Positions 21,741-58,164 are shown, counted from the first letter of the stretch. The stretch: 64,000 nucleotides of DNA from an uncultured Alphaproteobacteria bacterium (GCA_958295725.1 OY282368.1:1282124-1346123); one strand, 5' to 3'. Numbers and translations: made by a program. The notes: generated from the sequence alone by a model not told the origin.

Positions 21741-23445
21741 CACCGCGCCCGGAGCGTTCGCGGACGACGATCCGGTCACGTTCGAGGTGGTGAAGAACAG
21801 CCTCTATTCGATGGCCGCGGAAATGCGGGTCGTTCTGTCGAAAACGGCCTATTCGCCGATCCTGAAGTCGGCGGGCGATTTCTCGTGCGGCATCTTCGAC
21901 ATGCGGGGCGACATGGTGGCGCAAGGGCCGGATTTGCCGATGCATCTCGGCTCGATGCCGCTGGCCGTCAAGGCCGTCATCCGCGCCTGGGAGGAGATTG
22001 CGCCCGGCGACGTGTTCATCCACAACGATCCGTACTTCGGCGGCTCGCATCTGCCGGACGTCAACGTGGTGACGCCTGCCTTCGCGGACGGCGGGCGCCT
22101 GCTGGGGTTCGTCTGTCTGCGGGCCCATTGGCCGGACGTGGGCGGCGGCGCGCCCGGCAGCTACGGCGTCGAGACCGAGATATTCGCCGAGGGCCTGCGT
22201 CTGCCTCCCGTCCGGTTGTATCGCCGGGGCGAGCCCGTGCGCGAGGTCGAGGACATCATCTTCGCCAACGTGCGGACGCCGGAGGAGGGACGGGGCAACC
22301 TTCGCGCCCAGGTCGGTGCCAACCGTCGCGCGGCGGCCCGGCTCGAGGGACTGGCGCGCCGTCATGGGGCGGACCGCTTGTTGCGTATCATGCGGGGCGT
22401 GATGGACCGTTCCGAGGCGATGATGCGCCGGGCCCTGGCGGCGTTGCCCGACGGCGAGGGGAGTTTCGAGGACTTCTGCGACGGCGACGGCATCCTCGAG
22501 CCGGGCGAGACCGAGGATTCGCCGTTCGCCATCAGGCTGCGCGTGAGGAAGAGCGGCGACACGCTCGCCGTCGATTTCGCGGGTACCGATCCGGTCGTGC
22601 GAGGTCCCATGAACTCGCCCCTCGCGGTGACGGCGTCGGGGGTCTACACGGCCGTGAAGACCGTGGCCGACTCGGACGCGGCGATCCCCCCGAATTCGGG
22701 CTGCTGGCGTCCGATCTCCGTGAACGCCGAGCCCGGGACTGTCGTCAACGCCACGTTTCCCGCGCCGGTGGTGTACGCCAACCACGAGATCGCCCACCGG
22801 GTCTGCGACATGGTGTTCATGGCCATGTCGGGCTTCGCGCCGGACAACGTCATGGCGTGCTCCCAGGGAACGTCGGCCATTCTCGCCATGGGCGGCATCG
22901 ACCCGCGCGACGGCGCCCGCTACGTCAACTACGAGGTCGTCAAGGGCGGGTTCGGTGCGCGCCCGGGCAAGGACGGCATCAACGCTATCGCCGCCAGCGT
23001 CGCCAACACGGCGAATACGCCGGTGGAGGTCGTGGAGATGAGCTTTCCGCTACGGGTCGACCGCTACGAGCTGATCCCGGACTCGGGCGGAGCCGGGGAG
23101 TACCGCGGTGGTCTGGCGGCCCGCCGCGTGTGGAAGGTTCTCGGCCACGTGGCGGAGGCCACGGTGTGCTGCGAGCGGTCCAAGTCGCCGCCGTTCGGCC
23201 TGTTCGGGGGCGGGGCGGGCGCACCCGCGCGCGTCTACCTGATCGAGGCCGACGGCGCACGGCGCGATCTCAACAGCAAGGAGCACTTCCTCGCGCCCGA
23301 AGGCTCCGAGATCTGGTACGAGGTGCCCGGATCGGGCGGGTTCGGCCCGCCGTCGAAGCGCGATCCGGCGAAGGTCAGGGCAGACGTCCGCGACGGATAC
23401 GTCAGCGCCGAATCGGCCCGGCGCGATTACGGCGTCGAGGTTTAG
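21733..23445 (+). CDS. hyuB: Hydantoinase/5-oxoprolinase subunit B (HyuB family)
   Basis: 8-bp overlap with hyuA. Conserved FEVVKNSLYSMAAEM...KSAGDFSCGIFD motif. Confidence 0.85.
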   Translation: MADTAPGAFADDDPVTFEVVKNSLYSMAAEMRVVLSKTAYSPILKSAGDFSCGIFDMRGDMVAQGPDLPMHLGSMPLAVKAVIRAWEEIAPGDVFIHNDPYFGGSHLPDVNVVTPAFADGGRLLGFVCLRAHWPDVGGGAPGSYGVETEIFAEGLRLPPVRLYRRGEPVREVEDIIFANVRTPEEGRGNLRAQVGANRRAAARLEGLARRHGADRLLRIMRGVMDRSEAMMRRALAALPDGEGSFEDFCDGDGILEPGETEDSPFAIRLRVRKSGDTLAVDFAGTDPVVRGPMNSPLAVTASGVYTAVKTVADSDAAIPPNSGCWRPISVNAEPGTVVNATFPAPVVYANHEIAHRVCDMVFMAMSGFAPDNVMACSQGTSAILAMGGIDPRDGARYVNYEVVKGGFGARPGKDGINAIAASVANTANTPVEVVEMSFPLRVDRYELIPDSGGAGEYRGGLAARRVWKVLGHVAEATVCCERSKSPPFGLFGGGAGAPARVYLIEADGARRDLNSKEHFLAPEGSEIWYEVPGSGGFGPPSKRDPAKVRADVRDGYVSAESARRDYGVEV

Positions 23446-23455
23446 CTTACGAGAG

Positions 23456-24955
23456 GTGCGCGACATGCAAGAAGAGGTGCGCGACATCTGGAACCCCGGA
23501 ACGGGCATCACGGATGTGGATACCGATTGGGAGAACCTGTCCGTCTCGGAGATTCCGGGAATCAAGGCGATATGGCGCGACCAGCGGGAACGCCTCAAGG
23601 GAACGAATCTCGTTTCCGACTTCAACGAGCGGCTCGGGCGCGAATGGGCGATCGAGACCGGCATCATCGAGAACCTCTACGACATCGAGCGCGGAGTTAC
23701 TCAGACACTGATCGACCGGGGGTTTCGGGAAGAGTTGCTGGCCCACGGCTCGACCAACCGTCCGCGTGAATTCGTCCTTCAACTGCTGCGCGATCAGAAA
23801 CGGGCCCTCGATGGCGTGTTCGATTTCGTGAAGGGCGCGCGGCCCTTGTCGGCCTCCTACATCAAGGAGCTCCATGCCGTGCTGCTTCGGAGCCAGACGG
23901 TCACGGAAGGGATCGATTCGCTCGGCCGGCCCGTCGAGGTAGAACTGATCAAGGGCGACTGGAAGAACCAGCCCAACCATCCGGTCCGGGACGGCGTGAC
24001 CTACAGGTACTGTCCGCCGGAGCATGTGGCGGGCGAGATGGAGAGACTCGTCGAACTGCACGCGGAGCATGTCGCCAGGGAAATGCCGGCGGAAGCGCAG
24101 GCGGCCTGGCTGCATCATCGGTTCACGCAGATCCATCCGTTCCAGGACGGCAACGGCCGGTTGGCGCGGGCCCTCGCGTCGCTCGTCCTGATCCAGCACG
24201 GTCTTTTCCCGCTGGTCGTGACCAGGGACGACCGGACGGCCTATCTCGATGCTCTCGAAGCCGCCGATGATGGCGATCTCAAGCCACTCGTCGACCTGAT
24301 CGCCACACTTCAGAGAGTTCAATTCCGCAAGGCGGTGACGCTGGCCGAAACGGTATTGTCCGACAAGACTGACGTCGGGGCGATGCTGGACGGACTCCTC
24401 AAGGCTGCCGATAAGACCGCCGTTGAAAGAAGGCAGGAGCTTAAAGGGGTTTTCGATATAGCTGGCGCGGTAAAGAAACGTTTGCATGAACGGCTGGATG
24501 AAATCGCTCCGGATGTCACAAACGCGTTATTGAAGATAACGCCTTCGGGCGCGGCCTGGATCAAGGTGAAAGACGACAAGACCGGCCATTGGTACCGGGC
24601 GCAGATCATCCAGAACGCAAAACATCATCTGGGCTACTTCGTCAACTTCGGTGAGTTCCGTTCCTGGGTGGCGCTGCATATGACTTGGGAACGGCGGGCG
24701 CGGCTGGTGTTCGCGATCCACGGTATCGGACACGGGTTCACCGGAAGCCTGATCTGCGCGCCGTTCCTGGAGATTCTGGACGAGGACGAGGACGAGGACG
24801 AAGACGGGCACCGGCGCTCCACGCTCGTTCCGGTGGCGGAAGAAGGGTTCATCTTCTTTTACAACGACACGGAGGAGGCGGTCCTGAAGAGGCTCCAGCC
24901 GTGGCTCGAAAACGTGCTCAAGATCACCCTGAAGCAATTGACCGAGAACCTCTGA
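23456..24955 (+). CDS. Fic-family protein (class II, intramolecular inhibitory motif) with a long uncharacterised C-terminal domain
   Basis: Fic active-site motif HPFQDGNGRLAR. N-terminal inhibitory motif TGIIEN (S/TxxxE(G/N)). A C-terminal extension of about 230 aa with an acidic DEDEDEDED run. GC falls locally around 24300-24650. Confidence 0.8.
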   Translation: MRDMQEEVRDIWNPGTGITDVDTDWENLSVSEIPGIKAIWRDQRERLKGTNLVSDFNERLGREWAIETGIIENLYDIERGVTQTLIDRGFREELLAHGSTNRPREFVLQLLRDQKRALDGVFDFVKGARPLSASYIKELHAVLLRSQTVTEGIDSLGRPVEVELIKGDWKNQPNHPVRDGVTYRYCPPEHVAGEMERLVELHAEHVAREMPAEAQAAWLHHRFTQIHPFQDGNGRLARALASLVLIQHGLFPLVVTRDDRTAYLDALEAADDGDLKPLVDLIATLQRVQFRKAVTLAETVLSDKTDVGAMLDGLLKAADKTAVERRQELKGVFDIAGAVKKRLHERLDEIAPDVTNALLKITPSGAAWIKVKDDKTGHWYRAQIIQNAKHHLGYFVNFGEFRSWVALHMTWERRARLVFAIHGIGHGFTGSLICAPFLEILDEDEDEDEDGHRRSTLVPVAEEGFIFFYNDTEEAVLKRLQPWLENVLKITLKQLTENL

Positions 24956-24995
24956 CGCGGGCGACCGGCCGGCTCTCCGGCCGGGATTCCCGGCG

Positions 24996-25886
24996 CTATC
25001 CGCTCCCGTCGTAGCGGTCGTCCCACAACGTCATCAGCGCCGGGCTTTCCCACGCGCCCCTGCCGCGCGCATGGACGGCCGTGTTGAACTGGGCGATGAG
25101 CGCGGTGACCGGGAGCGCGACGCCGAACCGCCGCGCCTCGTCCAGGCAAAGGCCGAGATGGATCATCAGGGAGTCGATGCCGCCGTCCGCGGGGTCGAGA
25201 TCGCCGTCGATCATGCGCCGGATCCGATGGTCGAACCACCAGGACTGCGCCGAGCCCTCGGCGAGCAGCGAGAAAGCCTTGTCGAGATCGAGGCCGGACG
25301 CGCGGGCGAACGCCACTCCCTCGGCGAGGCCCTGCATGGTCGCCGAGATCAGGATCTGGTTGACCATCTTCGCGAGCTGACCGTGCCCGCTCGGCCCGAC
25401 GCGCTCGGCGGTTCGCGAATAGGCGACGAGATACGGCCGCGCCGCCGCCACGCCGGCCTCGGCGCCGCCGATCATCACGGCCAGCTCTCCGGCGTCGGCG
25501 AGCTCCTCCGCCCCCGACACCGGCGCGTCCAAGTAGTAGATGCCGCGTTCCGCGGCCGCCTCGGCCGACGCCCGCGCGGCCCGCGCCGTCATCGTGTCGT
25601 GATCGACGAACACCGCGCCTTCAGACATCGTCCGGAAAGCGCCCGCCGGCCCCTGGGTCGCCTCCCGCGACTCGTCGTCGCCGCCGACACAGGCGGCGAT
25701 GTAGACGGCGCCGTCCGCGGCCTCGGCGGCCGTGCGGGCGGCCCGTCCGCCATGCGCGGCGACGAACGCGTCCGCCTTCTCGGGCGCGATGTCGTGAACC
25801 GTCACGTCGTGACCCGCGTCGGCGAGATGCCTCGCCATGGGTCCGCCCATCCGGCCGATGCCGATGAATGCGACCTTGTCCACCAC
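24996..25886 (-). CDS. NAD-binding 3-hydroxyisobutyrate dehydrogenase-like oxidoreductase
   Basis: VAFIGIGRMGGPMARHLADAGH Rossmann motif of the 6PGDH/HIBADH family. Confidence 0.8.
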   Translation of the reverse strand: MVDKVAFIGIGRMGGPMARHLADAGHDVTVHDIAPEKADAFVAAHGGRAARTAAEAADGAVYIAACVGGDDESREATQGPAGAFRTMSEGAVFVDHDTMTARAARASAEAAAERGIYYLDAPVSGAEELADAGELAVMIGGAEAGVAAARPYLVAYSRTAERVGPSGHGQLAKMVNQILISATMQGLAEGVAFARASGLDLDKAFSLLAEGSAQSWWFDHRIRRMIDGDLDPADGGIDSLMIHLGLCLDEARRFGVALPVTALIAQFNTAVHARGRGAWESPALMTLWDDRYDGSG

Positions 25887-39961: not shown

Positions 39962-41350
39962 TGTCGAGAACATTTTGAGTTGACCGGATTATGTACCAAA
40001 TGGATTGACCGCTTCTGTTGGGGTTGTTGGCCCTGTGGGGAAGTGGTCAGGCGCGGGGCGGCTGTCCACTTGTCCACAGGGCGCCGGCGGGTTGCGTCGA
40101 AGCGGGTCACGCGGCCTTGCGGGTTTGGGTTTCGAGCGGGGTTCCGTCGGCTTGGTAGTGAGCGAGGCGCCTGGGTCCGTGGAAGACGGCGAGGGTGTCG
40201 TCGGGGTACTCGTGCACCCGGACCTTGACCTTGACGTAGTGGTGGCGATGTCGCCCGGCGGGGATCTGCAGGCTGCGTCCCTTGTAGCGCACGGTGTTGT
40301 CGCCTGACACGGTGCGGTCCTCCTGGACGCAGAGGATGTCTTCCAAGGCGCCGGCGAAGGGCACGAAGGCCGAACCCTCGGCCTCGGGCGGGGTCGCGAA
40401 GCGTCTGTTGTGGTCCGGCAGGTAGACCTCCTCGAGGAAGCGGTTGGCCTCGGCCATGTCGGTGATGCCGGCGAGCCTGAGTTCCTGGGGCAGGCGCTTC
40501 TGCACGGTGGCGAACATGCGCTCCGAGCGCCCCCTGGCCTCGGGCGAGTAGGCGGCGATGTGCTCGATGCCGAGTTGGTGAAGCGCGCGACCGACCTGGG
40601 TCGGAGTGTCCTTGTCCACCTTGCCGCCGGCCTCGGGGGTGCGCCAGTAGTGGCTGCCGCGGTCGGTGTAGAGCGAACAGAACAGTCCGCGCTCGCGGAT
40701 CACCTCGCGGAGCGCCCGGAAGCTCGACATGGTGCCCTCCTCGGTGACGAAGAAGGCCGAGTAGACCTCGCTGGTGGCGTCGTCCAGGGTGACGATCAGG
40801 TCCCACTCCCGACCGGGTGCCCACTCATGGCGCGAGCCGTCCTGATGCAGCATCATGCCGGGCAGTGCCCGGCGCGGCCGCTTGCGCCGGTGGGCGCCGC
40901 GCCGGGGCGCCGCGCGCCTGCGGCCATGAGCCTGCAAGGTCAGCCGAACCCAGTTGTAGCTGCGCTTGATGCCGTGCGCGGTGACCAGCTTCTCGTGAAA
41001 ATGCTTGGCGTTGAAGTCCCAGTAGCGGGTGTCGAACAACGCCAGAACCCGCGCCACCTCGTCCACGCCGGCGCGGCGCGCCGAGACCCGGCCCAGACGG
41101 CGGTCGTACAACCCCTCCGCCCCCTCCGCCTCGTAGCGGTCGCGCCAGCGCCGGAAGGTCCGTTCCGAAACACCCAGAACCTCCGCCGCCTCGCCTTGGC
41201 TCAACACACCCCGATGGGTGCGACCGTAAACCTCCTCGAACTTCATCAATCTCAGTCCCTGTCGCTGCTCCGTCCGACGCATCCAGTCCCTCCTTGGCCT
41301 GAATACGTTCTAAAACCGGACAGATCAGTTGGTACATAATCCGGTCATAT
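39962..41350 (-). mobile_element. Insertion sequence (ISNCY/IS481-like) with about 38-bp imperfect terminal inverted repeats
   Basis: IRL TGTCGAGAACATTTTGAGTTGACCGGATTATGTACCAA (39962..). IRR reverse complement GCTGTCGTTAACAGAGGATATGACCGGATTATGTACCAA (..41361). Flanked by the direct repeat GACGGATTTTGACC (39948-39961 and 41364-41377). Confidence 0.75.
40107..41282 (-). CDS. DDE transposase (rve/integrase-core; ISNCY/IS481-like)
   Basis: 391 aa. N-terminal HTH (LSQGEAAEVLGVSERTFRRWRDRYEAEG) and an integrase-core segment with a YTDRGSHY-type motif. Confidence 0.8.
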   Translation of the reverse strand: MRRTEQRQGLRLMKFEEVYGRTHRGVLSQGEAAEVLGVSERTFRRWRDRYEAEGAEGLYDRRLGRVSARRAGVDEVARVLALFDTRYWDFNAKHFHEKLVTAHGIKRSYNWVRLTLQAHGRRRAAPRRGAHRRKRPRRALPGMMLHQDGSRHEWAPGREWDLIVTLDDATSEVYSAFFVTEEGTMSSFRALREVIRERGLFCSLYTDRGSHYWRTPEAGGKVDKDTPTQVGRALHQLGIEHIAAYSPEARGRSERMFATVQKRLPQELRLAGITDMAEANRFLEEVYLPDHNRRFATPPEAEGSAFVPFAGALEDILCVQEDRTVSGDNTVRYKGRSLQIPAGRHRHHYVKVKVRVHEYPDDTLAVFHGPRRLAHYQADGTPLETQTRKAA

Positions 41351-41375
41351 CCTCTGTTAACGACAGCGACGGATT

Positions 41376-41405
41376 TTGACCTTGCGGCGTCGTTCGTGGT
41401 AGGAT
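41376..41405 (+). promoter_or_regulatory. Candidate sigma70-type promoter of SLP gene copy 1 (TTGACC-N18-TAGGAT)
   Basis: The same element with TAGGGT as the -10 is present at 56531-56560 upstream of copy 2. Its position just upstream of the 13-bp repeat tract would put the repeats in the 5' UTR. Confidence 0.3.
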
Positions 41406-41419
41406 AAGGTTGCGAACTT

Positions 41420-41549
41420 CACGGGGCCTCTTCACGGGGCCTCTTCACGGGGCCTCTTCACGGGGCCTCTTCACGGGGCCTCTTCACGGGGCCTCTTCAC
41501 GGGGCCTCTTCACGGGGCCTCTTCACGGGGCCTCTTCACGGGGCCTCTT
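41420..41549 (+). repeat. Simple sequence repeat (CACGGGGCCTCTT)x10 between the putative promoter and the RBS of the SLP gene
   Basis: Exactly 10 perfect 13-bp units. The RBS GGAGG lies 9 nt after the tract and the ATG is at 41573. Confidence 0.9.
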
Positions 41550-41572
41550 CAGGAAGCGGAGGTCCTGTTCCG

Positions 41573-42904
41573 ATGTTCTTCAGCAGTGCTCGTGGATTCG
41601 TCTTGTCGGCGGTGGCGTGCGCCCTCGTTCTCATTCTCTCCGGCTGCGGCGGCGGCGGGAGCAGCAGCGGCACCGCGCCTCCTCCGGGACGGTCGATGGC
41701 GCAACTCGATCCCGAGCCGACGCCGGCACCAACGCCAACGCCGGAGCCGACGCCGCCGGAGACGCTGAGTAATGCGCTGGCTGTTGAAACGATACAGCCG
41801 GGTGCCGTGCTGGGGATCGAGAAGGCCATCGGCGCCGAACCAAAGGCCAGCAGCAGCACGCTGTCTAGCATCACACAGTCTTCGAATACGGACGCTGATG
41901 GTGTCACGACCGACCAAGTGGAGATATTCGCGGAGTACGGAGCCACCACACCCCGTTTTTCGGTGACAAACGGAGCCGAATGGGCCATCGGCATGGATGA
42001 AGGAAATCCCATGGCGATACAGGGCTTCGACCAATCTTGGAAAGGTGCTCAGTTGATCAACACTCATCTCTCCCATATCTCCGGGGGCACCTTGTACGTC
42101 GATGCCTACACGAACATCGAGGCGCCGACGACGGAGAATGTGCCGGGACCTTCCCAAATAGTAAGGAGAGGTGATACAGTAGGCGGTGTCTTCTTTTCCA
42201 TACCGTCCTCCGGAACTCTGAACGGCGAAGATGGCGAGTTTGAGTGTGGCTCTTCTACATGTTCTTTCAACTACCGGCGGGACTTCTCCGGCCGCGGCCC
42301 CGTTACCGATATCTCAGGGACCGTCTTATTCACCCCAGCCTCTACAACGCGCACAGACACCGACTATCTGGCCGGTGGGGTCTGGCTGTTCGTTCCCGAC
42401 ACTGCGTCAAGCACCGACGACTACGTATTCGGCGTCTTTGCGCGCGGCGAGGATCCTTTCAATCAAGGGCGGATCATGGCTCTAACCGGCAGCGCGACGT
42501 ATATGGGGGGCGCCACCGGGAAATATTCGCAAAAGGATGGTAGTTCGACCACCATCGGATCCTTCGAGGCCGACGTTAGCCTGACGGCCAGCTTTGGTGC
42601 TGCCGACAGCCTTGGTACGATCAGCGGTACGATCACCGATTTCGAATTGGACGGTGAGGCGACCGCGGGCAGCTTGACCTTGGGAGAGGCCGCTATCGGC
42701 TCCGCCAACAGCGGCTTCTTCAAGGGTGCGGTGGGCGGCTCGGATGGCTCCCGCACATACGCTGGCAAGTGGGGTGGCCAGTTCTTCGGCAACGGGGCGG
42801 CCAGTACCGACCATCCGGGATCGGTTGCCGGGACGTTCGGCGCACAGTCCACGGACGAGGCTGTGAACTACATCGGCTTTTTCGGCGCGGACCGGGAGCA
42901 GTAA
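41573..42904 (+). CDS. Surface lipoprotein with TbpB/fHbp-like C-terminal beta-barrel (putative Slam/T11SS cargo), copy 1
   Basis: Lipobox LILSGC followed by a Gly/Ser/Pro-rich linker. Handle-domain-like motifs (ATYMGGATGKY, FEADVSLTASFG...LGTISGTI). C-terminal barrel signature YAGKWGGQFFGNGA...GSVAGTFGA...YIGFFGADREQ. Confidence 0.65.
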   Translation: MFFSSARGFVLSAVACALVLILSGCGGGGSSSGTAPPPGRSMAQLDPEPTPAPTPTPEPTPPETLSNALAVETIQPGAVLGIEKAIGAEPKASSSTLSSITQSSNTDADGVTTDQVEIFAEYGATTPRFSVTNGAEWAIGMDEGNPMAIQGFDQSWKGAQLINTHLSHISGGTLYVDAYTNIEAPTTENVPGPSQIVRRGDTVGGVFFSIPSSGTLNGEDGEFECGSSTCSFNYRRDFSGRGPVTDISGTVLFTPASTTRTDTDYLAGGVWLFVPDTASSTDDYVFGVFARGEDPFNQGRIMALTGSATYMGGATGKYSQKDGSSTTIGSFEADVSLTASFGAADSLGTISGTITDFELDGEATAGSLTLGEAAIGSANSGFFKGAVGGSDGSRTYAGKWGGQFFGNGAASTDHPGSVAGTFGAQSTDEAVNYIGFFGADREQ

Positions 42905-42971
42905 CGCGATATCCAATCTCGCAACCCCGAACGGGAGAAGGGCGGCCCCGCGGCTGCCCTTCTTTTTCTCC

Positions 42972-44327
42972 ATGATGACGATGAAGTGGATCTGCGCCCT
43001 CGCCGTCGCCGTTCTGGTCCACGCTTCGGCGCTCGCCGCTTCCGACCGTTCCCATCTGTCCTCCGACCCCCGGGTCAACGACGCCCGGACACTCATCGAA
43101 AGCGGCCGCTTCGCCGAGGCGCTGGACGTCCTGCGCCCGCTGGCGCCGGACCATCCGGACCGGACGGACGTCCTCTTCCTCCTCGGTCTGGCCGCCGTCG
43201 AGGCCTCCCGGCGGGCCGACACCGGGGAAGCGGAACGGACCGTCCTGCTCGACGAGGCCATCGCCGCGCTCCGCGCCATCCTGATCGATCGGCCGGGTCT
43301 CGTGCGCGTGCGCCTGGAGCTGGCGCGGGCGTTCTTCCTCAAGCGCGAGGACGACCTCTCGCGCGAGCATTTCGAGCGCGTGCTGGCCGGCGGGCCGTCG
43401 CCGGCGATGGTCGCCAACATCCGCCGTTATCTGGCGGAAATGCGGGAGCGCCGGCGTTGGAGCGCCTGGTTCGGCGCGGCGCTGGCGCCGGACAGCAATC
43501 TCAACACGGCCTCGGACTCGGACGTCATCTACATCCGCGGCCTGCCGTTCCGCCGCGGGGCGGACGCGGGCCCCCGCTCGGGGGTGGGCGCCATCCTCTG
43601 GACGGGCGGCGAATACCAGCACCCCCTCGGCCAGCGCCTGCGCCTGCGCGCGGGCGCCGACCTCGCTCGCCGGGAGTATGCCGGAAGCGGCTTCGATCGG
43701 ACCTTTCTGTCCGGGCACGTCGGGCCGCGCTGGCTGGCGGACGCGAAGACCGAGGCGAGCCTGCTCGCCAGCGCCCGGCGCAGCTGGAGAGCCGGGGCGC
43801 CGGAGAGCCATGACCTCGGCGCCCGTCTGGAGGGCGAGCGCCGCTTCTCCCGACGCGTGACGGCGAGCGCGCGAACCTCCCTGCACTGGCGCGAATACCG
43901 GAGCGACCGACGCCTCGACGGGCCGGTTTTCGATCTCTCCCTGGGCGCCGCATGGCTCGCGACGCCGACCGTGCGGTTCGACGCGACGCTCGGCTATGCG
44001 CGTGAACGTCCGGGGCGAACGGTCTGGCGCAATACCAGCCGATGGGCGCGGGCCGGTTTCTCCATGGCGCTGCCGCTGGGCTTCACCGTCGGCGTCGGCG
44101 GTGAGTTGCGCCGGACAAGGTACGAGGGCCGGTCGCCGTACACGCTCGGCGGCGCGTCCCGCGAGGACCGGGTCCGGGTGCTGCGGATCTCGACGTTCAA
44201 TCGGGTCTTCACCCTGTACGGATACAGTCCGCGGCTCGTGCTGGCGAACGAGGCGCGCGACTCCAACGCGCAATTGCACGACTACAAGCGCAATCGCGCC
44301 GAATTGCGATTCGTGCGGCAGTTCTAG
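42972..44327 (+). CDS. Slam (surface lipoprotein assembly modulator)/DUF560 outer-membrane protein, type XI secretion, copy 1
   Basis: Signal peptide. N-terminal TPR-like periplasmic region. DUF560 onset motif RWSAWFGAALAPDSNLN. An alternating beta-strand-rich C-terminal half ending in the aromatic residue (RFVRQF) typical of OM barrels. Confidence 0.7.
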   Translation: MMTMKWICALAVAVLVHASALAASDRSHLSSDPRVNDARTLIESGRFAEALDVLRPLAPDHPDRTDVLFLLGLAAVEASRRADTGEAERTVLLDEAIAALRAILIDRPGLVRVRLELARAFFLKREDDLSREHFERVLAGGPSPAMVANIRRYLAEMRERRRWSAWFGAALAPDSNLNTASDSDVIYIRGLPFRRGADAGPRSGVGAILWTGGEYQHPLGQRLRLRAGADLARREYAGSGFDRTFLSGHVGPRWLADAKTEASLLASARRSWRAGAPESHDLGARLEGERRFSRRVTASARTSLHWREYRSDRRLDGPVFDLSLGAAWLATPTVRFDATLGYARERPGRTVWRNTSRWARAGFSMALPLGFTVGVGGELRRTRYEGRSPYTLGGASREDRVRVLRISTFNRVFTLYGYSPRLVLANEARDSNAQLHDYKRNRAELRFVRQF

Positions 44328-55784: not shown

Positions 55785-56024
55785 CTACGGAAGCAGCTTG
55801 AGCAAGCCGACGATGAGCACGGCCTGTCCGGCGGCGACGGCGAAGACGAAGCGGACCAGCCGGGTTTCGAGGTTGGCGAGATCGGCCTTCGTCGCCAGCG
55901 TGTCCCGCTCGGCGGCAGTGGCGTCGCGCATGACGGCGACGGCGGCTTCGGCCTGGCGTTCGTCGAACCCGGCTTCCCGAAGAGTCTTGGCGGCGGCGTA
56001 AGTGTCGAAGGCGGTGGCGGGCAT
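55785..56024 (-). CDS. DUF1640-like small coiled-coil/TM protein, tandem paralogue 5 of 5
   Basis: MPATAFDTYAAAKTLREAGFDERQAE... The track ORF extends to 56090, and the start is uncertain. Confidence 0.45.
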   Translation of the reverse strand: MPATAFDTYAAAKTLREAGFDERQAEAAVAVMRDATAAERDTLATKADLANLETRLVRFVFAVAAGQAVLIVGLLKLLP

Positions 56025-56186
56025 GAAGCGATCATGGGCCATCACGGGTCCTTGCGCAAGTTCCGCACGGTCCCGCAACATCCCGTCCATGCCCGTTTCA
56101 GATTGTTGGCGAAATTGGGGGTGTAATCCGATGTCCAGAAGAAATATCGCATTTTTCTGTGGATTTCAGGACATTTAGCGGCGGAT

Positions 56187-56230
56187 TCCCAATCCGCAGG
56201 CCGGAGGTTCGAATCCCTCCGGGGTCGCCA
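56187..56230 (+). other. tRNA-Gly(CCC)-like 3' fragment (anticodon arm, imperfect T-arm, acceptor 3' strand plus CCA) lacking a 5' half
   Basis: GCGGA-TTCCCAA-TCCGC stem-loop with anticodon CCC. GGTTCGAATCC T-loop. ...GGGGTCGCCA at the end. The upstream 30 nt cannot form the D-arm or acceptor 5' strand. Confidence 0.35.
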
Positions 56231-56574
56231 AGCCTCTCCTTCCAGAAACCCTGGAGAAACAGCGACTTTCACGGAACGAGGCCAAAGAAATTGGCTCGAT
56301 TGGCGAATCGCAGGCATGTCCCGGCCGTGGCGGTCGGACATGGCAGCCTCTCCTATATCCGGGGAACCTGAACCACATGCCGCTCGAATACTGAATGCCG
56401 CTTACAGGTCCTGAGCCTGGCGACACACGACCGCACCGGGCACTCGACGGACATACCCCTGCCGAGTACCTTCACTCGCTCACAGCCAATGAGACCCCAT
56501 CGTCTCATATATCCTGAACCAGGACGAATTTTGACCTTGCGGCGTCGTTCGTGGTAGGGTAGGGTTGCGAACTT

Positions 56575-56605
56575 CACGGGGCCTCTTATCTTCACGGGGC
56601 CTCTT
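56575..56605 (+). repeat. Two copies of the CACGGGGCCTCTT unit (separated by ATCTT) upstream of SLP gene copy 2
   Basis: Same promoter-proximal context as 41420-41549, but 2 units rather than 10. Confidence 0.85.
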
Positions 56606-56628
56606 ATTAAGAAACAGAGAGGTTCCGA

Positions 56629-58164
56629 ATGTCTATCAACGGTACGAGTGGATTCGTCTTGTCGGCGGCGGCGTGCGCGATCGTGCTGTCCGGCTGCGGC
56701 GGCGGCGGCGGCGGCTCGTCGCCGGCGAAAGAGATCGCGGATTTGGCCGAAGGCGGCCGTCTACAGATCATGAAAGCCGCCGGGAACGACCCCGCGCCGA
56801 GCGGCAGCGTGATGCAATCCTCGAATGCGACGGACGGCGTGACGAAGGACAGCATCGGCGTCATGGCAAAGCACGAGAACGGGCAGGTGACGTTCGCCGT
56901 AGACTACGACGACGGCTCCGGGGGAGACCCCGAGATAACGATGGGCACGGCGGACGACCTGCGCGCGAGGTTCTCCGGCGACGTCATTTGCGAACAGTGC
57001 GACGCCAAGCCGTTCAGCGGCAACGCCAGGTGGAACGGCGCCGAACTGCGAAAGTCGTACGGGGACGGAACGTTGTGGGTCGATGTCTACACGGATATCG
57101 AGAAACCGACGACGGAGACGGTGACGACCGGCGGCGACGCTCCTCAAACCGGCGATGGCACCCGGGATGTTCCTACCGGGACGCGGATATCGTTTACGCA
57201 ATTCATCGGAGGCCGCGTCGACATCGATAGGCCAGGTGGGTTTAGCACTCTTGGGACACTGGATGGCGCTATGGGTACGTTCACGTGCCCGTCGAGTTGT
57301 GTTGTCAGTAACCACATCGTGGCAGGGGGGAGTTGGACCTTCACCCCCACCCGGCCGCCGGGAGCCCTTGACGTTCTAAGCAACGCGGCCGGCGTCGTCC
57401 TTACAGGGAACTTCGATGAGACTCGAACTGACGGCACCTTCAACGGCGCGGCGGGATACTTCAAATGCCTGTCCCGGTTGACGGGAAGTTGCGGTCGTGG
57501 CGTATCGAACGGCCGCACTACGCTCAGTGGCGAGTGGGTATTCATTCCCACCACCCCCACGCCAGCAGGTACGACGACGACACGCACCGTACAGGATGCC
57601 GACTATCTGGCCGGCGGAGTCTGGTTGTACGTTCCGGAGAGCGGCGACGCTTATCAGTTCGGCGCCTTCGTAGACGGCGGCCAGCCCTTTCTCCAGAGCC
57701 GTATCGAGGGCCTGACGGGCACCGCGAAGTATGCAGGAGACGCGACCGGTATCTACGTGGAAAAGGAATCCTCCACCGCCGCCGCCGAGATCGGATATTT
57801 CGACGCGGAGGTGACGTTGACGGCCGACTTCGGCACGAATGCCGAGCTGGGAACGATCCGTGGAGTCATCGATAACTTCGTCGAGGAGTCGACCGACGAG
57901 GCCATTGTCGGGGATCCGGAGGTGACGCTGCGGCAGGCTGACATCGGGTCCGCGGACAGCGGTTTCTTCAAGGGCAAGACGACGGCAACCCTCTCCGGCA
58001 GAGAGTTCACCGGCAAATGGGGTGGCCAGTTCTACGGCAACGGCGCCACCGCCACCGCCCACCCCGGTTCCGTCGCCGGCACGTTCGGCGGCGCGGCGCC
58101 GGAGAACGCCGACGACGGTTACGAAGCCTCGTTCGTAGGGGCGTACGGGGCCTACAAACAGTAA
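56629..58164 (+). CDS. Surface lipoprotein with TbpB/fHbp-like C-terminal beta-barrel (putative Slam/T11SS cargo), copy 2
   Basis: Lipobox VLSGC plus a Gly-rich linker. Its central region differs from copy 1. Conserved handle motifs (AKYAGDATGIY, FDAEVTLTADFG...LGTIRGVI) and C-terminal barrel (FTGKWGGQFYGNGA...GSVAGTFGG...FVGAYGAYKQ). Confidence 0.65.
   Translation: MSINGTSGFVLSAAACAIVLSGCGGGGGGSSPAKEIADLAEGGRLQIMKAAGNDPAPSGSVMQSSNATDGVTKDSIGVMAKHENGQVTFAVDYDDGSGGDPEITMGTADDLRARFSGDVICEQCDAKPFSGNARWNGAELRKSYGDGTLWVDVYTDIEKPTTETVTTGGDAPQTGDGTRDVPTGTRISFTQFIGGRVDIDRPGGFSTLGTLDGAMGTFTCPSSCVVSNHIVAGGSWTFTPTRPPGALDVLSNAAGVVLTGNFDETRTDGTFNGAAGYFKCLSRLTGSCGRGVSNGRTTLSGEWVFIPTTPTPAGTTTTRTVQDADYLAGGVWLYVPESGDAYQFGAFVDGGQPFLQSRIEGLTGTAKYAGDATGIYVEKESSTAAAEIGYFDAEVTLTADFGTNAELGTIRGVIDNFVEESTDEAIVGDPEVTLRQADIGSADSGFFKGKTTATLSGREFTGKWGGQFYGNGATATAHPGSVAGTFGGAAPENADDGYEASFVGAYGAYKQ

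Follow-up and report, generated by a model that had tools for sequence, protein, structure and literature searches.

A one-gene Fic family, class II by its motifs and with a C-terminal module of its own, described from a horizontally acquired alphaproteobacterial copy

The stretch of DNA analyzed here comprises 64,000 nucleotides from an uncultured Alphaproteobacteria bacterium (GCA_958295725.1, OY282368.1:1282124-1346123; the whole of it is called the window in the following), and its plus strand encodes at 23456-24955 a member of the Fic superfamily. By motif this protein belongs to class II in the classification of Engel et al. 2012, and its C-terminal half is a module that occurs, among the sequence matches examined, exclusively in one Fic family. 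The gene itself is accessory and horizontally acquired. On balance we are inclined to see in its product a self-contained autoinhibited class II Fic enzyme with a regulatory or target-binding C-terminal module that acts as a conditional toxin-like switch of growth or immunity. The accessory domain and the family as such are uncharacterized, Fic chemistry and the logic of autoinhibition are familiar, and the copy in the window is one ordinary member of its family.

The sole domain that Pfam detects in the protein is Fic (PF02661), with 66.6 bits against a cut-off of 24, covering residues 130-245 of the 499-amino-acid form. All other residue numbers given here refer to a form of 496 amino acids (see below), so that numbers in the initial annotation are higher by three. 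That annotation had described a canonical Fic motif and an N-terminal inhibitory motif, and a regular-expression scan of the protein finds each of them exactly once: HxFx(D/E)GNGRxxR as HPFQDGNGRLAR at residues 224-235, and (S/T)xxxE(G/N) as TGIIEN at residues 65-70, located 155 residues ahead of the catalytic histidine. Both descriptions hold for the whole family. In 47 full-length members with 31-52% identity the inhibitory residues E64, T65, G66 and E69 are conserved to at least 90% and so are the catalytic residues H224, P225, F226, D228, G229, N230, G231, R232 and R235; in the family alignment A1 the four inhibitory residues and the catalytic motif are invariant. The predicted fold agrees with that of Fic proteins, and the sequence relatives with solved structure are all Fic proteins, the best being BT_2513 (3CUC, E 3.8e-19) followed by FICD (3e-15), both of them class II members that bear the inhibitory glutamate. 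The region of the inhibitory helix is predicted to be helical (residues 50-65 and 67-71). A search of the PDB with the N-terminal 121 residues, aimed at aligning this helix to solved class II proteins, gave no usable match.

The protein does not belong to the other Fic classes or named families with which it was compared. A class III protein like NmFic would carry the (S/T)xxxE(G/N) motif C-terminal of the Fic motif, where it was not found. A class I system (FicT/FicA, VbhT/VbhA) would need a separate small antitoxin gene next to the Fic gene; none is present in the window, as had been noted from its sequence, and class I does not apply because the window leaves no space for such a gene and no antitoxin or other neighbour is conserved in about 80 other loci. 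The specific models score far under their cut-offs: the NCBIfam models for the SoFic equivalog and for NmFic give 29.7 bits (cut-off 550) and 12.4 bits (cut-off 230), XopAC 39.5 bits (cut-off 450), AnkX 9.4 bits (cut-off 1400) and mobile mystery protein B (TIGR02613) 45.9 bits (cut-off 124.4). The PADLOC models SoFic and PDC-S04 align to the Fic core only. The protein thus stands outside the SoFic, NmFic, FicT/FicA, FICD, XopAC and AnkX families, the defining feature of each being absent. The glutamate of the inhibitory motif is said to compete with the gamma-phosphate of ATP and thereby to hold AMP transfer low until it is displaced. The enzyme is most likely an ATP-dependent AMP-transferase and possibly a reversible AMPylase/deAMPylase.

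The C-terminal half had been reported to lack an obvious family and this was borne out, since neither Pfam nor NCBIfam, PADLOC or PHROGs offers a match, and a PDB profile search with 34 C-terminal sequences returned only coiled-coil noise (E at least 0.27). No well-known Fic-associated domain was matched there. Its predicted structure consists of a long helical hairpin followed by a cystatin/frataxin-like α/β roll. The predicted fold resembles small protein-binding rolls, namely cystatins, frataxin, the TriTu immunity protein and type III secretion chaperones, with comparison scores of about 5.5 for the type III secretion chaperones and 7.5-9.2 for cystatins with the full model, at an identity of 3-14% throughout; such a resemblance of modelled structures defines a fold class and is no evidence of homology. 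Nowhere in the gene is conservation lower or AT content higher than in the hairpin. In the roll Y391, W401, H419, G422, G427, F462 and W480 are conserved to at least 90% in the 47 full-length members. These residues are mostly core aromatics together with a His-Gly-rich hairpin, and no obvious catalytic set is found among them. A catalytic Cys-His pair in the stretch HGIGxxFxGSLxCxPF was considered and rejected: C431 varies among the divergent members, and of this stretch they keep just H419, G422 and G427.

The domain had also been called acidic. A DEDEDEDED tract is indeed present, but apart from this tract the C-terminal half is not acidic, having 26 Asp and Glu against 30 Lys and Arg and an isoelectric point of 9.2. 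The tract is encoded by a (GGACGA)x4.8 repeat and lies in a loop with a predicted local distance difference test score (pLDDT) below 50 at residues 442-449, for which the family consensus reads RDTDEEGQ. Therefore it represents a local expansion of the repeat, specific to this lineage, in a loop that is predicted to be disordered.

The exclusiveness of the module follows from a search with the last 215 residues against 1.84 billion representative proteins, which yielded 268 clusters at 50% identity (E up to 0.001). In the listed matches of about 480-500 amino acids the domain is found at approximately 280-490. Every match examined (ten proteins in a Pfam scan and eight further sequences that were read) has a Fic domain or the C-terminal tail of one. 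All eight scanned matches of longer or intermediate length carry the Fic domain upstream, and the eight matches of about 250 amino acids that were read start within the tail of the Fic domain (…LFPLVV.RDDR..YI.ALEAAD.GDL…). Apparent stand-alone proteins of this length were for that reason discarded as truncated gene calls and, with all examined matches bearing Fic sequence, the domain appears to be found only in this Fic family.

The combination of the two domains is by no means limited to this genome, since the homologue search shows it in a large family spread over many phyla. The 120 best database matches have 62-84% identity at 98-100% length coverage and about 490 amino acids, and those with a name are all called “Fic family protein”. 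At least 571 relatives were found in a scan with one genome per species, and the best 80 of them are nearly all of full length with 39-82% identity. The hosts of these best 80 are Alpha- and Gammaproteobacteria, Burkholderiales, Acidobacteriota, Rhodothermales and other Bacteroidota, Verrucomicrobiota, Latescibacterota, Binatia, Clostridia and many Cyanobacteria; Caldilinea and Truepera occur among the 120 best database matches as well. The hosts are predominantly free-living cyanobacteria together with marine or soil bacteria that are represented solely by metagenome-assembled genomes. Searches of the literature, with subscription journals outside their coverage, revealed no description of this combination of Fic and C-terminal domain. 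Variants with additional N-terminal modules also occur, among them P0133 (723 amino acids) and P0062/P0121 (634-637 amino acids). One variant has an N-terminal AbiEi_4/DUF6088 helix-turn-helix (HTH) domain of AbiEi type together with a sub-threshold EAD1 match, and several, one of them from Truepera, have N-terminal ankyrin repeats.

The open reading frame (ORF) proposed for 23456-24955 is real and comprises 499 amino acids if counted from GTG 23456, with the stop codon at 24953-24955. An identical database protein (P0001, 100% identity) has only 496 amino acids, and a Shine-Dalgarno-like GAGAGG is located 8 nucleotides ahead of ATG 23465. From these two observations the true start is probably ATG 23465, giving a product of 496 residues. 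The features of the locus are the following.

23456..24955, plus strand: Fic-family gene, ORF from GTG 23456, likely start ATG 23465, matched by P0001
23657..23674, plus strand: inhibitory-helix motif TGIIEN, fitting (S/T)xxxE(G/N), with the glutamate E69 (496-residue form) or E72 (499-residue form)
23843..24190, plus strand: Fic core domain, profile match to Pfam PF02661
24134..24169, plus strand: catalytic Fic motif HPFQDGNGRLAR, from the motif scan, conserved across the family
24281..24538, plus strand: long helical hairpin of structure models (helices 273-300 and 304-358), predicted to join the Fic core to the C-terminal roll
24551..24952, plus strand: family-specific C-terminal α/β roll, residues ~363-496, modelled as a curved antiparallel sheet with one helix packed against it and another at the C-terminus
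24778..24806, plus strand: hexanucleotide tandem repeat (GGACGA)x4.8 from repeat detection, encoding the DEDEDEDED loop, predicted disordered
23452..23487, plus strand: two 15-nucleotide direct repeats AGAGGTGCGCGACAT with 21-nucleotide spacing across the start codon, from comparison with the sister genome
25001..25042, no strand given: 3' end of the dehydrogenase gene that converges on the Fic gene, being the surviving right-hand copy of an att-like repeat, duplicated beyond the Fic insert in the sister genome

The base composition of the gene sets it apart from its surroundings. A drop in GC around 24300-24650 had been reported; windowed GC and GC at third codon positions (GC3) confirm it, and the effect extends to the whole gene and is larger than claimed. 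GC is 0.605 for the whole gene against a window mean of 0.680 (standard deviation 0.026 in 1500-bp windows), a value reached by only the lowest 0.4% of such windows and hence not within normal variance, and the segment 24300-24650 with 0.544 ranks among the lowest 0.04% of 350-bp windows. The Fic gene has a GC3 of 0.78 and four neighbouring genes have 0.89-0.91, which means that the shift is present at the codon level and goes beyond amino acid content. The same holds in the family: the flanks exceed the gene in GC at 79 of 81 loci (median difference of the gene -6.5 points, Wilcoxon p = 7e-15), and the GC of the gene tracks that of the host with a slope of 0.67. This is the pattern of an often-transferred accessory gene that partly adjusts to its host.

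The history of the insertion can be read from a sister genome (OZ251449.1, L001), a metagenome-assembled Alphaproteobacteria genome with 91-94% nucleotide identity to the window. It keeps the order hyuA-hyuB-Fic-dehydrogenase and has a 560-bp spacer with a GC of 0.51 (L001 9441-10000) ahead of the Fic gene, the insert measuring about 2.1 kb. On either side of spacer plus gene stands a 72-bp direct repeat whose copies share 80% identity (L001 9397-9468 and 11510-11577) and that duplicates the 3' end of the dehydrogenase gene and so is the scar of an insertion into this 3' end. The window holds only the right-hand copy of the repeat (25001-25042), whereas the left copy and the spacer are gone. 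We conclude that the Fic gene was inserted in the common ancestor of the window and the sister genome and that the lineage of the window later fused it directly behind hyuB; the suspected horizontal acquisition is supported by low GC and GC3, by the repeat-flanked insert of the sister genome, by the GC deficit of the family and by identities of 62-84% between members from several phyla. Exactly where spacer and left repeat of the sister are missing, the window has the 15-nucleotide perfect repeats AGAGGTGCGCGACAT at 23452-23466 and 23473-23487. They look like a small duplication at the deletion junction by which the ribosome-binding and start sequences were restored.

The gene is under purifying selection, as the ratio of nonsynonymous to synonymous rates (dN/dS) between window and sister genome is 0.23 overall and low in both halves (0.27 in the Fic half, 0.19 in the C-terminal half). 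The absolute rates were also compared. Between window 23465-24955 and L001 10001-11473 dS amounts to 0.44 and dN to 0.10; five flanking genes have a dS of 0.08-0.14 and a dN of 0.02-0.05, so that the dS of the Fic gene is 3-5 times higher. This excess could reflect faster synonymous change at non-equilibrium composition, or else one lineage may have exchanged its allele for a diverged one at the same site.

In the window the gene lies 19 nucleotides behind the stop codon of hyuB, the second gene of a hydantoinase A/B pair, and 40 nucleotides from a convergent dehydrogenase gene. This 3-hydroxyisobutyrate-dehydrogenase-like gene is followed by genes for an enoyl-CoA hydratase and an acyl-CoA synthetase. 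A promoter scan of 22800-25300 found none and no canonical terminator follows the Fic gene; with no promoter-like site upstream, transcription by read-through from hyuAB is likely. Among 84 loci of the family, all-against-all clustering of flanking ORFs revealed no conserved neighbour, the largest cluster covering 9 loci, and the ORFs closest on either side, when scanned with Pfam, belonged to scattered housekeeping families, none of them in more than 3 of 79; Pfam and PADLOC together revealed no recurrent partner. Genes of type I restriction-modification (R-M) systems lie within 10 kb in 8 of the 84 loci. A type I specificity subunit is directly adjacent in 5 of about 80, and MADS genes or a type I methyltransferase in a few more. 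Loci within type I R-M or MADS operons amount to about 6-10%. R-M, MADS and mobile contexts exceed chance expectation, yet they make up less than 10% of loci. Two of them may illustrate this: in Rhodovulum the family gene adjoins IS66, a HATPase gene and a type I R-M system, with a VgrG-like gene about 1.5 kb downstream, and in Mesorhizobium it stands last in a type I R-M island, beside a serine recombinase. Two further arrangements were observed. In one alphaproteobacterium a 99-residue Mrr_N protein (L002 9709-10008) overlaps the start of the Fic gene by 8 nucleotides, a pairing seen in 1 of 84 loci, and in three cyanobacterial loci (L054 9091-9942 and two others) the family member is directly preceded by another, shorter Fic-like gene, the two forming tandem Fic paralogues.

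How such a protein might work can be outlined from its parts. E69 on the protein's own N-terminal helix would keep the active site off, and the hairpin with the cystatin/frataxin-like roll would serve as a protein-binding, oligomerization or sensor element. The C-terminal module may then set the moment at which the glutamate gives way or select the protein to be modified, a role parallel to that of the TPR domain of FICD or of the C-terminal domain of SoFic (PMC12249575). The enzyme would operate like the single-gene defence protein SoFic and not as a secreted effector. A flavour of conflict systems is given by those loci within type I R-M or MADS operons, by islands with recombinases or insertion sequence elements and by one fusion to an AbiEi-type HTH. 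A more specific version is rather doubtful, namely a one-protein sensor-effector for immunity, abortive infection or stress arrest in which the roll binds a phage- or stress-derived ligand, the hairpin frees the glutamate and AMPylation hits an essential host target. It would explain why the gene travels alone between phyla and is AT-rich compared with its hosts, as well as the R-M and MADS loci and the AbiEi-type HTH fusion.

Several observations weigh against the toxin-like switch. Model confidence for the inhibitory helix is low (pLDDT 34-51), and therefore the position of the glutamate over the ATP site is only putative. Ordinary metabolic or housekeeping genes surround more than 90% of the loci. 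No plasmid of PLSDB matches at E 1e-30 or better, the phage genomes of INPHARED yield only matches to the Fic core, and IMG/VR has one full-length copy in 2.9 million contigs; cargo borne by plasmids or phages, which had been considered as well, was rejected on account of this near-absence. An identity of 62-84% among the top 120 matches is very high conservation for an immunity gene. Finally, we know of no biochemical activity, target or phenotype on record for any member of the family. As to biological role we hence favour the conditional toxin-like immunity or stress switch only weakly, and the main rival is a housekeeping regulator.

Such a regulator, less probable in our view but a serious contender, would reversibly AMPylate a conserved cytoplasmic protein (a chaperone, topoisomerase or translation factor) in the manner of FICD and BiP, with the C-terminal domain docking the substrate. 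The closest solved relatives, BT_2513 and FICD, fit this picture, as does the intact inhibitory glutamate: glutamate-bearing Fic enzymes are bifunctional, this residue supporting deAMPylation as well in enzymes such as FICD and EfFIC, with the switch set by metal or by oligomeric state (PMC6408439, PMC6826200). The unusually high conservation across phyla under purifying selection, the ordinary genes around most loci and, in the window, a position 19 nucleotides behind hyuB with no promoter of its own detected point in the same direction. A housekeeping role is, however, difficult to reconcile with a patchy distribution of a single-copy accessory gene, with a GC below that of the flanks in 97% of loci and with the insertion scar in the sister genome. 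Conserved synteny with any candidate substrate gene is not seen in the 84 loci, and the occasional R-M, MADS and island contexts together with the AbiEi-HTH fusion would be unexpected for a housekeeping gene.

Much less probable is a Fic toxin that is delivered by type III, IV or VI secretion or by contact into eukaryotic or rival cells, its C-terminal domain being the targeting or delivery module; of the three roles named at the outset (effector, toxin, regulatory) this is the least likely. Many Fic effectors are known and two of them, XopAC and AnkX, are weak matches to the Fic core, though with scores far below their cut-offs. The VgrG-like gene of the Rhodovulum locus, the ankyrin repeats of some relatives and the resemblance of the predicted C-terminal fold to TriTu and to type III secretion chaperones would also suit an effector. 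Nevertheless, the family conserves the inhibitory glutamate motif, which translocated effectors such as VopS and IbpA typically lack. The neighbourhood contains no conserved secretion-system gene in about 80 loci and no adjacent one in the window, and the hosts are mostly free-living. A decaying, functionless remnant in a region of ordinary low GC is very improbable: nothing else survives of the cargo that the insert carried, and in the window the Fic gene has lost the upstream spacer and probably the promoter, but its reading frame is intact with all catalytic motifs, dN/dS is 0.23, both domains are conserved family-wide and GC lies in the lowest 0.4% of windows with GC3 11-13 points under the neighbours.

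Elsewhere in the window further genes in or beside patches of low GC were observed. An ORF at 40107-41282 on the minus strand contains HTH_28, HTH_29 and HTH_32, typical N-termini of transposases, and lies at the edge of a low-GC patch at ~41000-43000 (GC 0.57-0.65). An ORF of 443 amino acids at 41573-42904 on the plus strand without Pfam match lies where GC reaches its minimum for the window (0.568 at 42001-42500), and directly downstream at 42972-44327 on the plus strand follows a Slam gene (surface lipoprotein assembly modifier, with tetratricopeptide (TPR) repeats); the product of the former may be a Slam-dependent surface lipoprotein. In a third patch (56001-58000, GC 0.58-0.63) an ORF of 511 amino acids at 56629-58164 on the plus strand, again without Pfam match, is possibly another acquired gene. 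In the sister genome, upstream of hyuAB (L001 1-3539), two copies of a gene for a fusion of an N6_N4 methyltransferase with HNH are interleaved with fragments of a gamma-glutamyltranspeptidase gene, which suggests a duplication or insertion that disrupted ggt.

Although Fic chemistry is well understood, most bacterial members have to our knowledge neither a known target nor a known trigger. The family presented here is large (268 clusters; full length in at least 80 species), strongly conserved and encoded by one gene, and its accessory domain has no described relatives. A large, conserved and self-contained family of this kind makes the question of how an intramolecularly inhibited bacterial Fic protein is switched on tractable, and it also allows one to ask whether single-gene Fic immunity reaches beyond SoFic. 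In this genome it offers a clear and datable one-gene horizontal insertion that was later wired into a metabolic operon.

If compared with known systems, the protein shares with each of them only part of its features. BT_2513 from Bacteroides thetaiotaomicron (PDB 3CUC) is a class II Fic protein of 291 amino acids without hairpin and roll; the alignment covers about 204 of the 496 residues and its function is likewise uncharacterized. FICD/HYPE, the AMPylase/deAMPylase of BiP in the animal endoplasmic reticulum, has an N-terminal membrane anchor and a TPR domain for substrate docking, whereas in the window protein Pfam finds no TPR match, the family-unique C-terminal module takes this place and the similarity is limited to residues 188-285. 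EfFIC is a single-domain bacterial Fic protein to which the window protein adds the same module. For mobile mystery protein B the match is weak, and the HTH partner, mystery protein A, is not present in the window. Fic/Doc genes in type I R-M operons are paralleled by the minority of the family located between or beside hsdM, hsdS, hsdR or MADS genes, in contrast with the window copy, which has no R-M neighbours. The secreted effectors XopAC/AvrAC and AnkX differ in that their effector-specific models remain far from their cut-offs (39.5 of 450 and 9.4 of 1400 bits). A further parallel is SoFic. Its C-terminal domain is a winged helix and so of a fold unlike that predicted here. The PADLOC model matches the Fic core (E 1.3e-21) but spans only positions 93-288 of 361, and the small downstream anti-SoFic-like gene is not present in the window, where the dehydrogenase gene ends 40 nucleotides past the stop codon. 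Both nevertheless stand alone, belong to class II and carry an additional domain C-terminal of the Fic core, and SoFic of Shewanella and Escherichia coli is a single-gene anti-phage AMPylase of abortive infection in which the C-terminal domain controls toxicity (PMC12249575).

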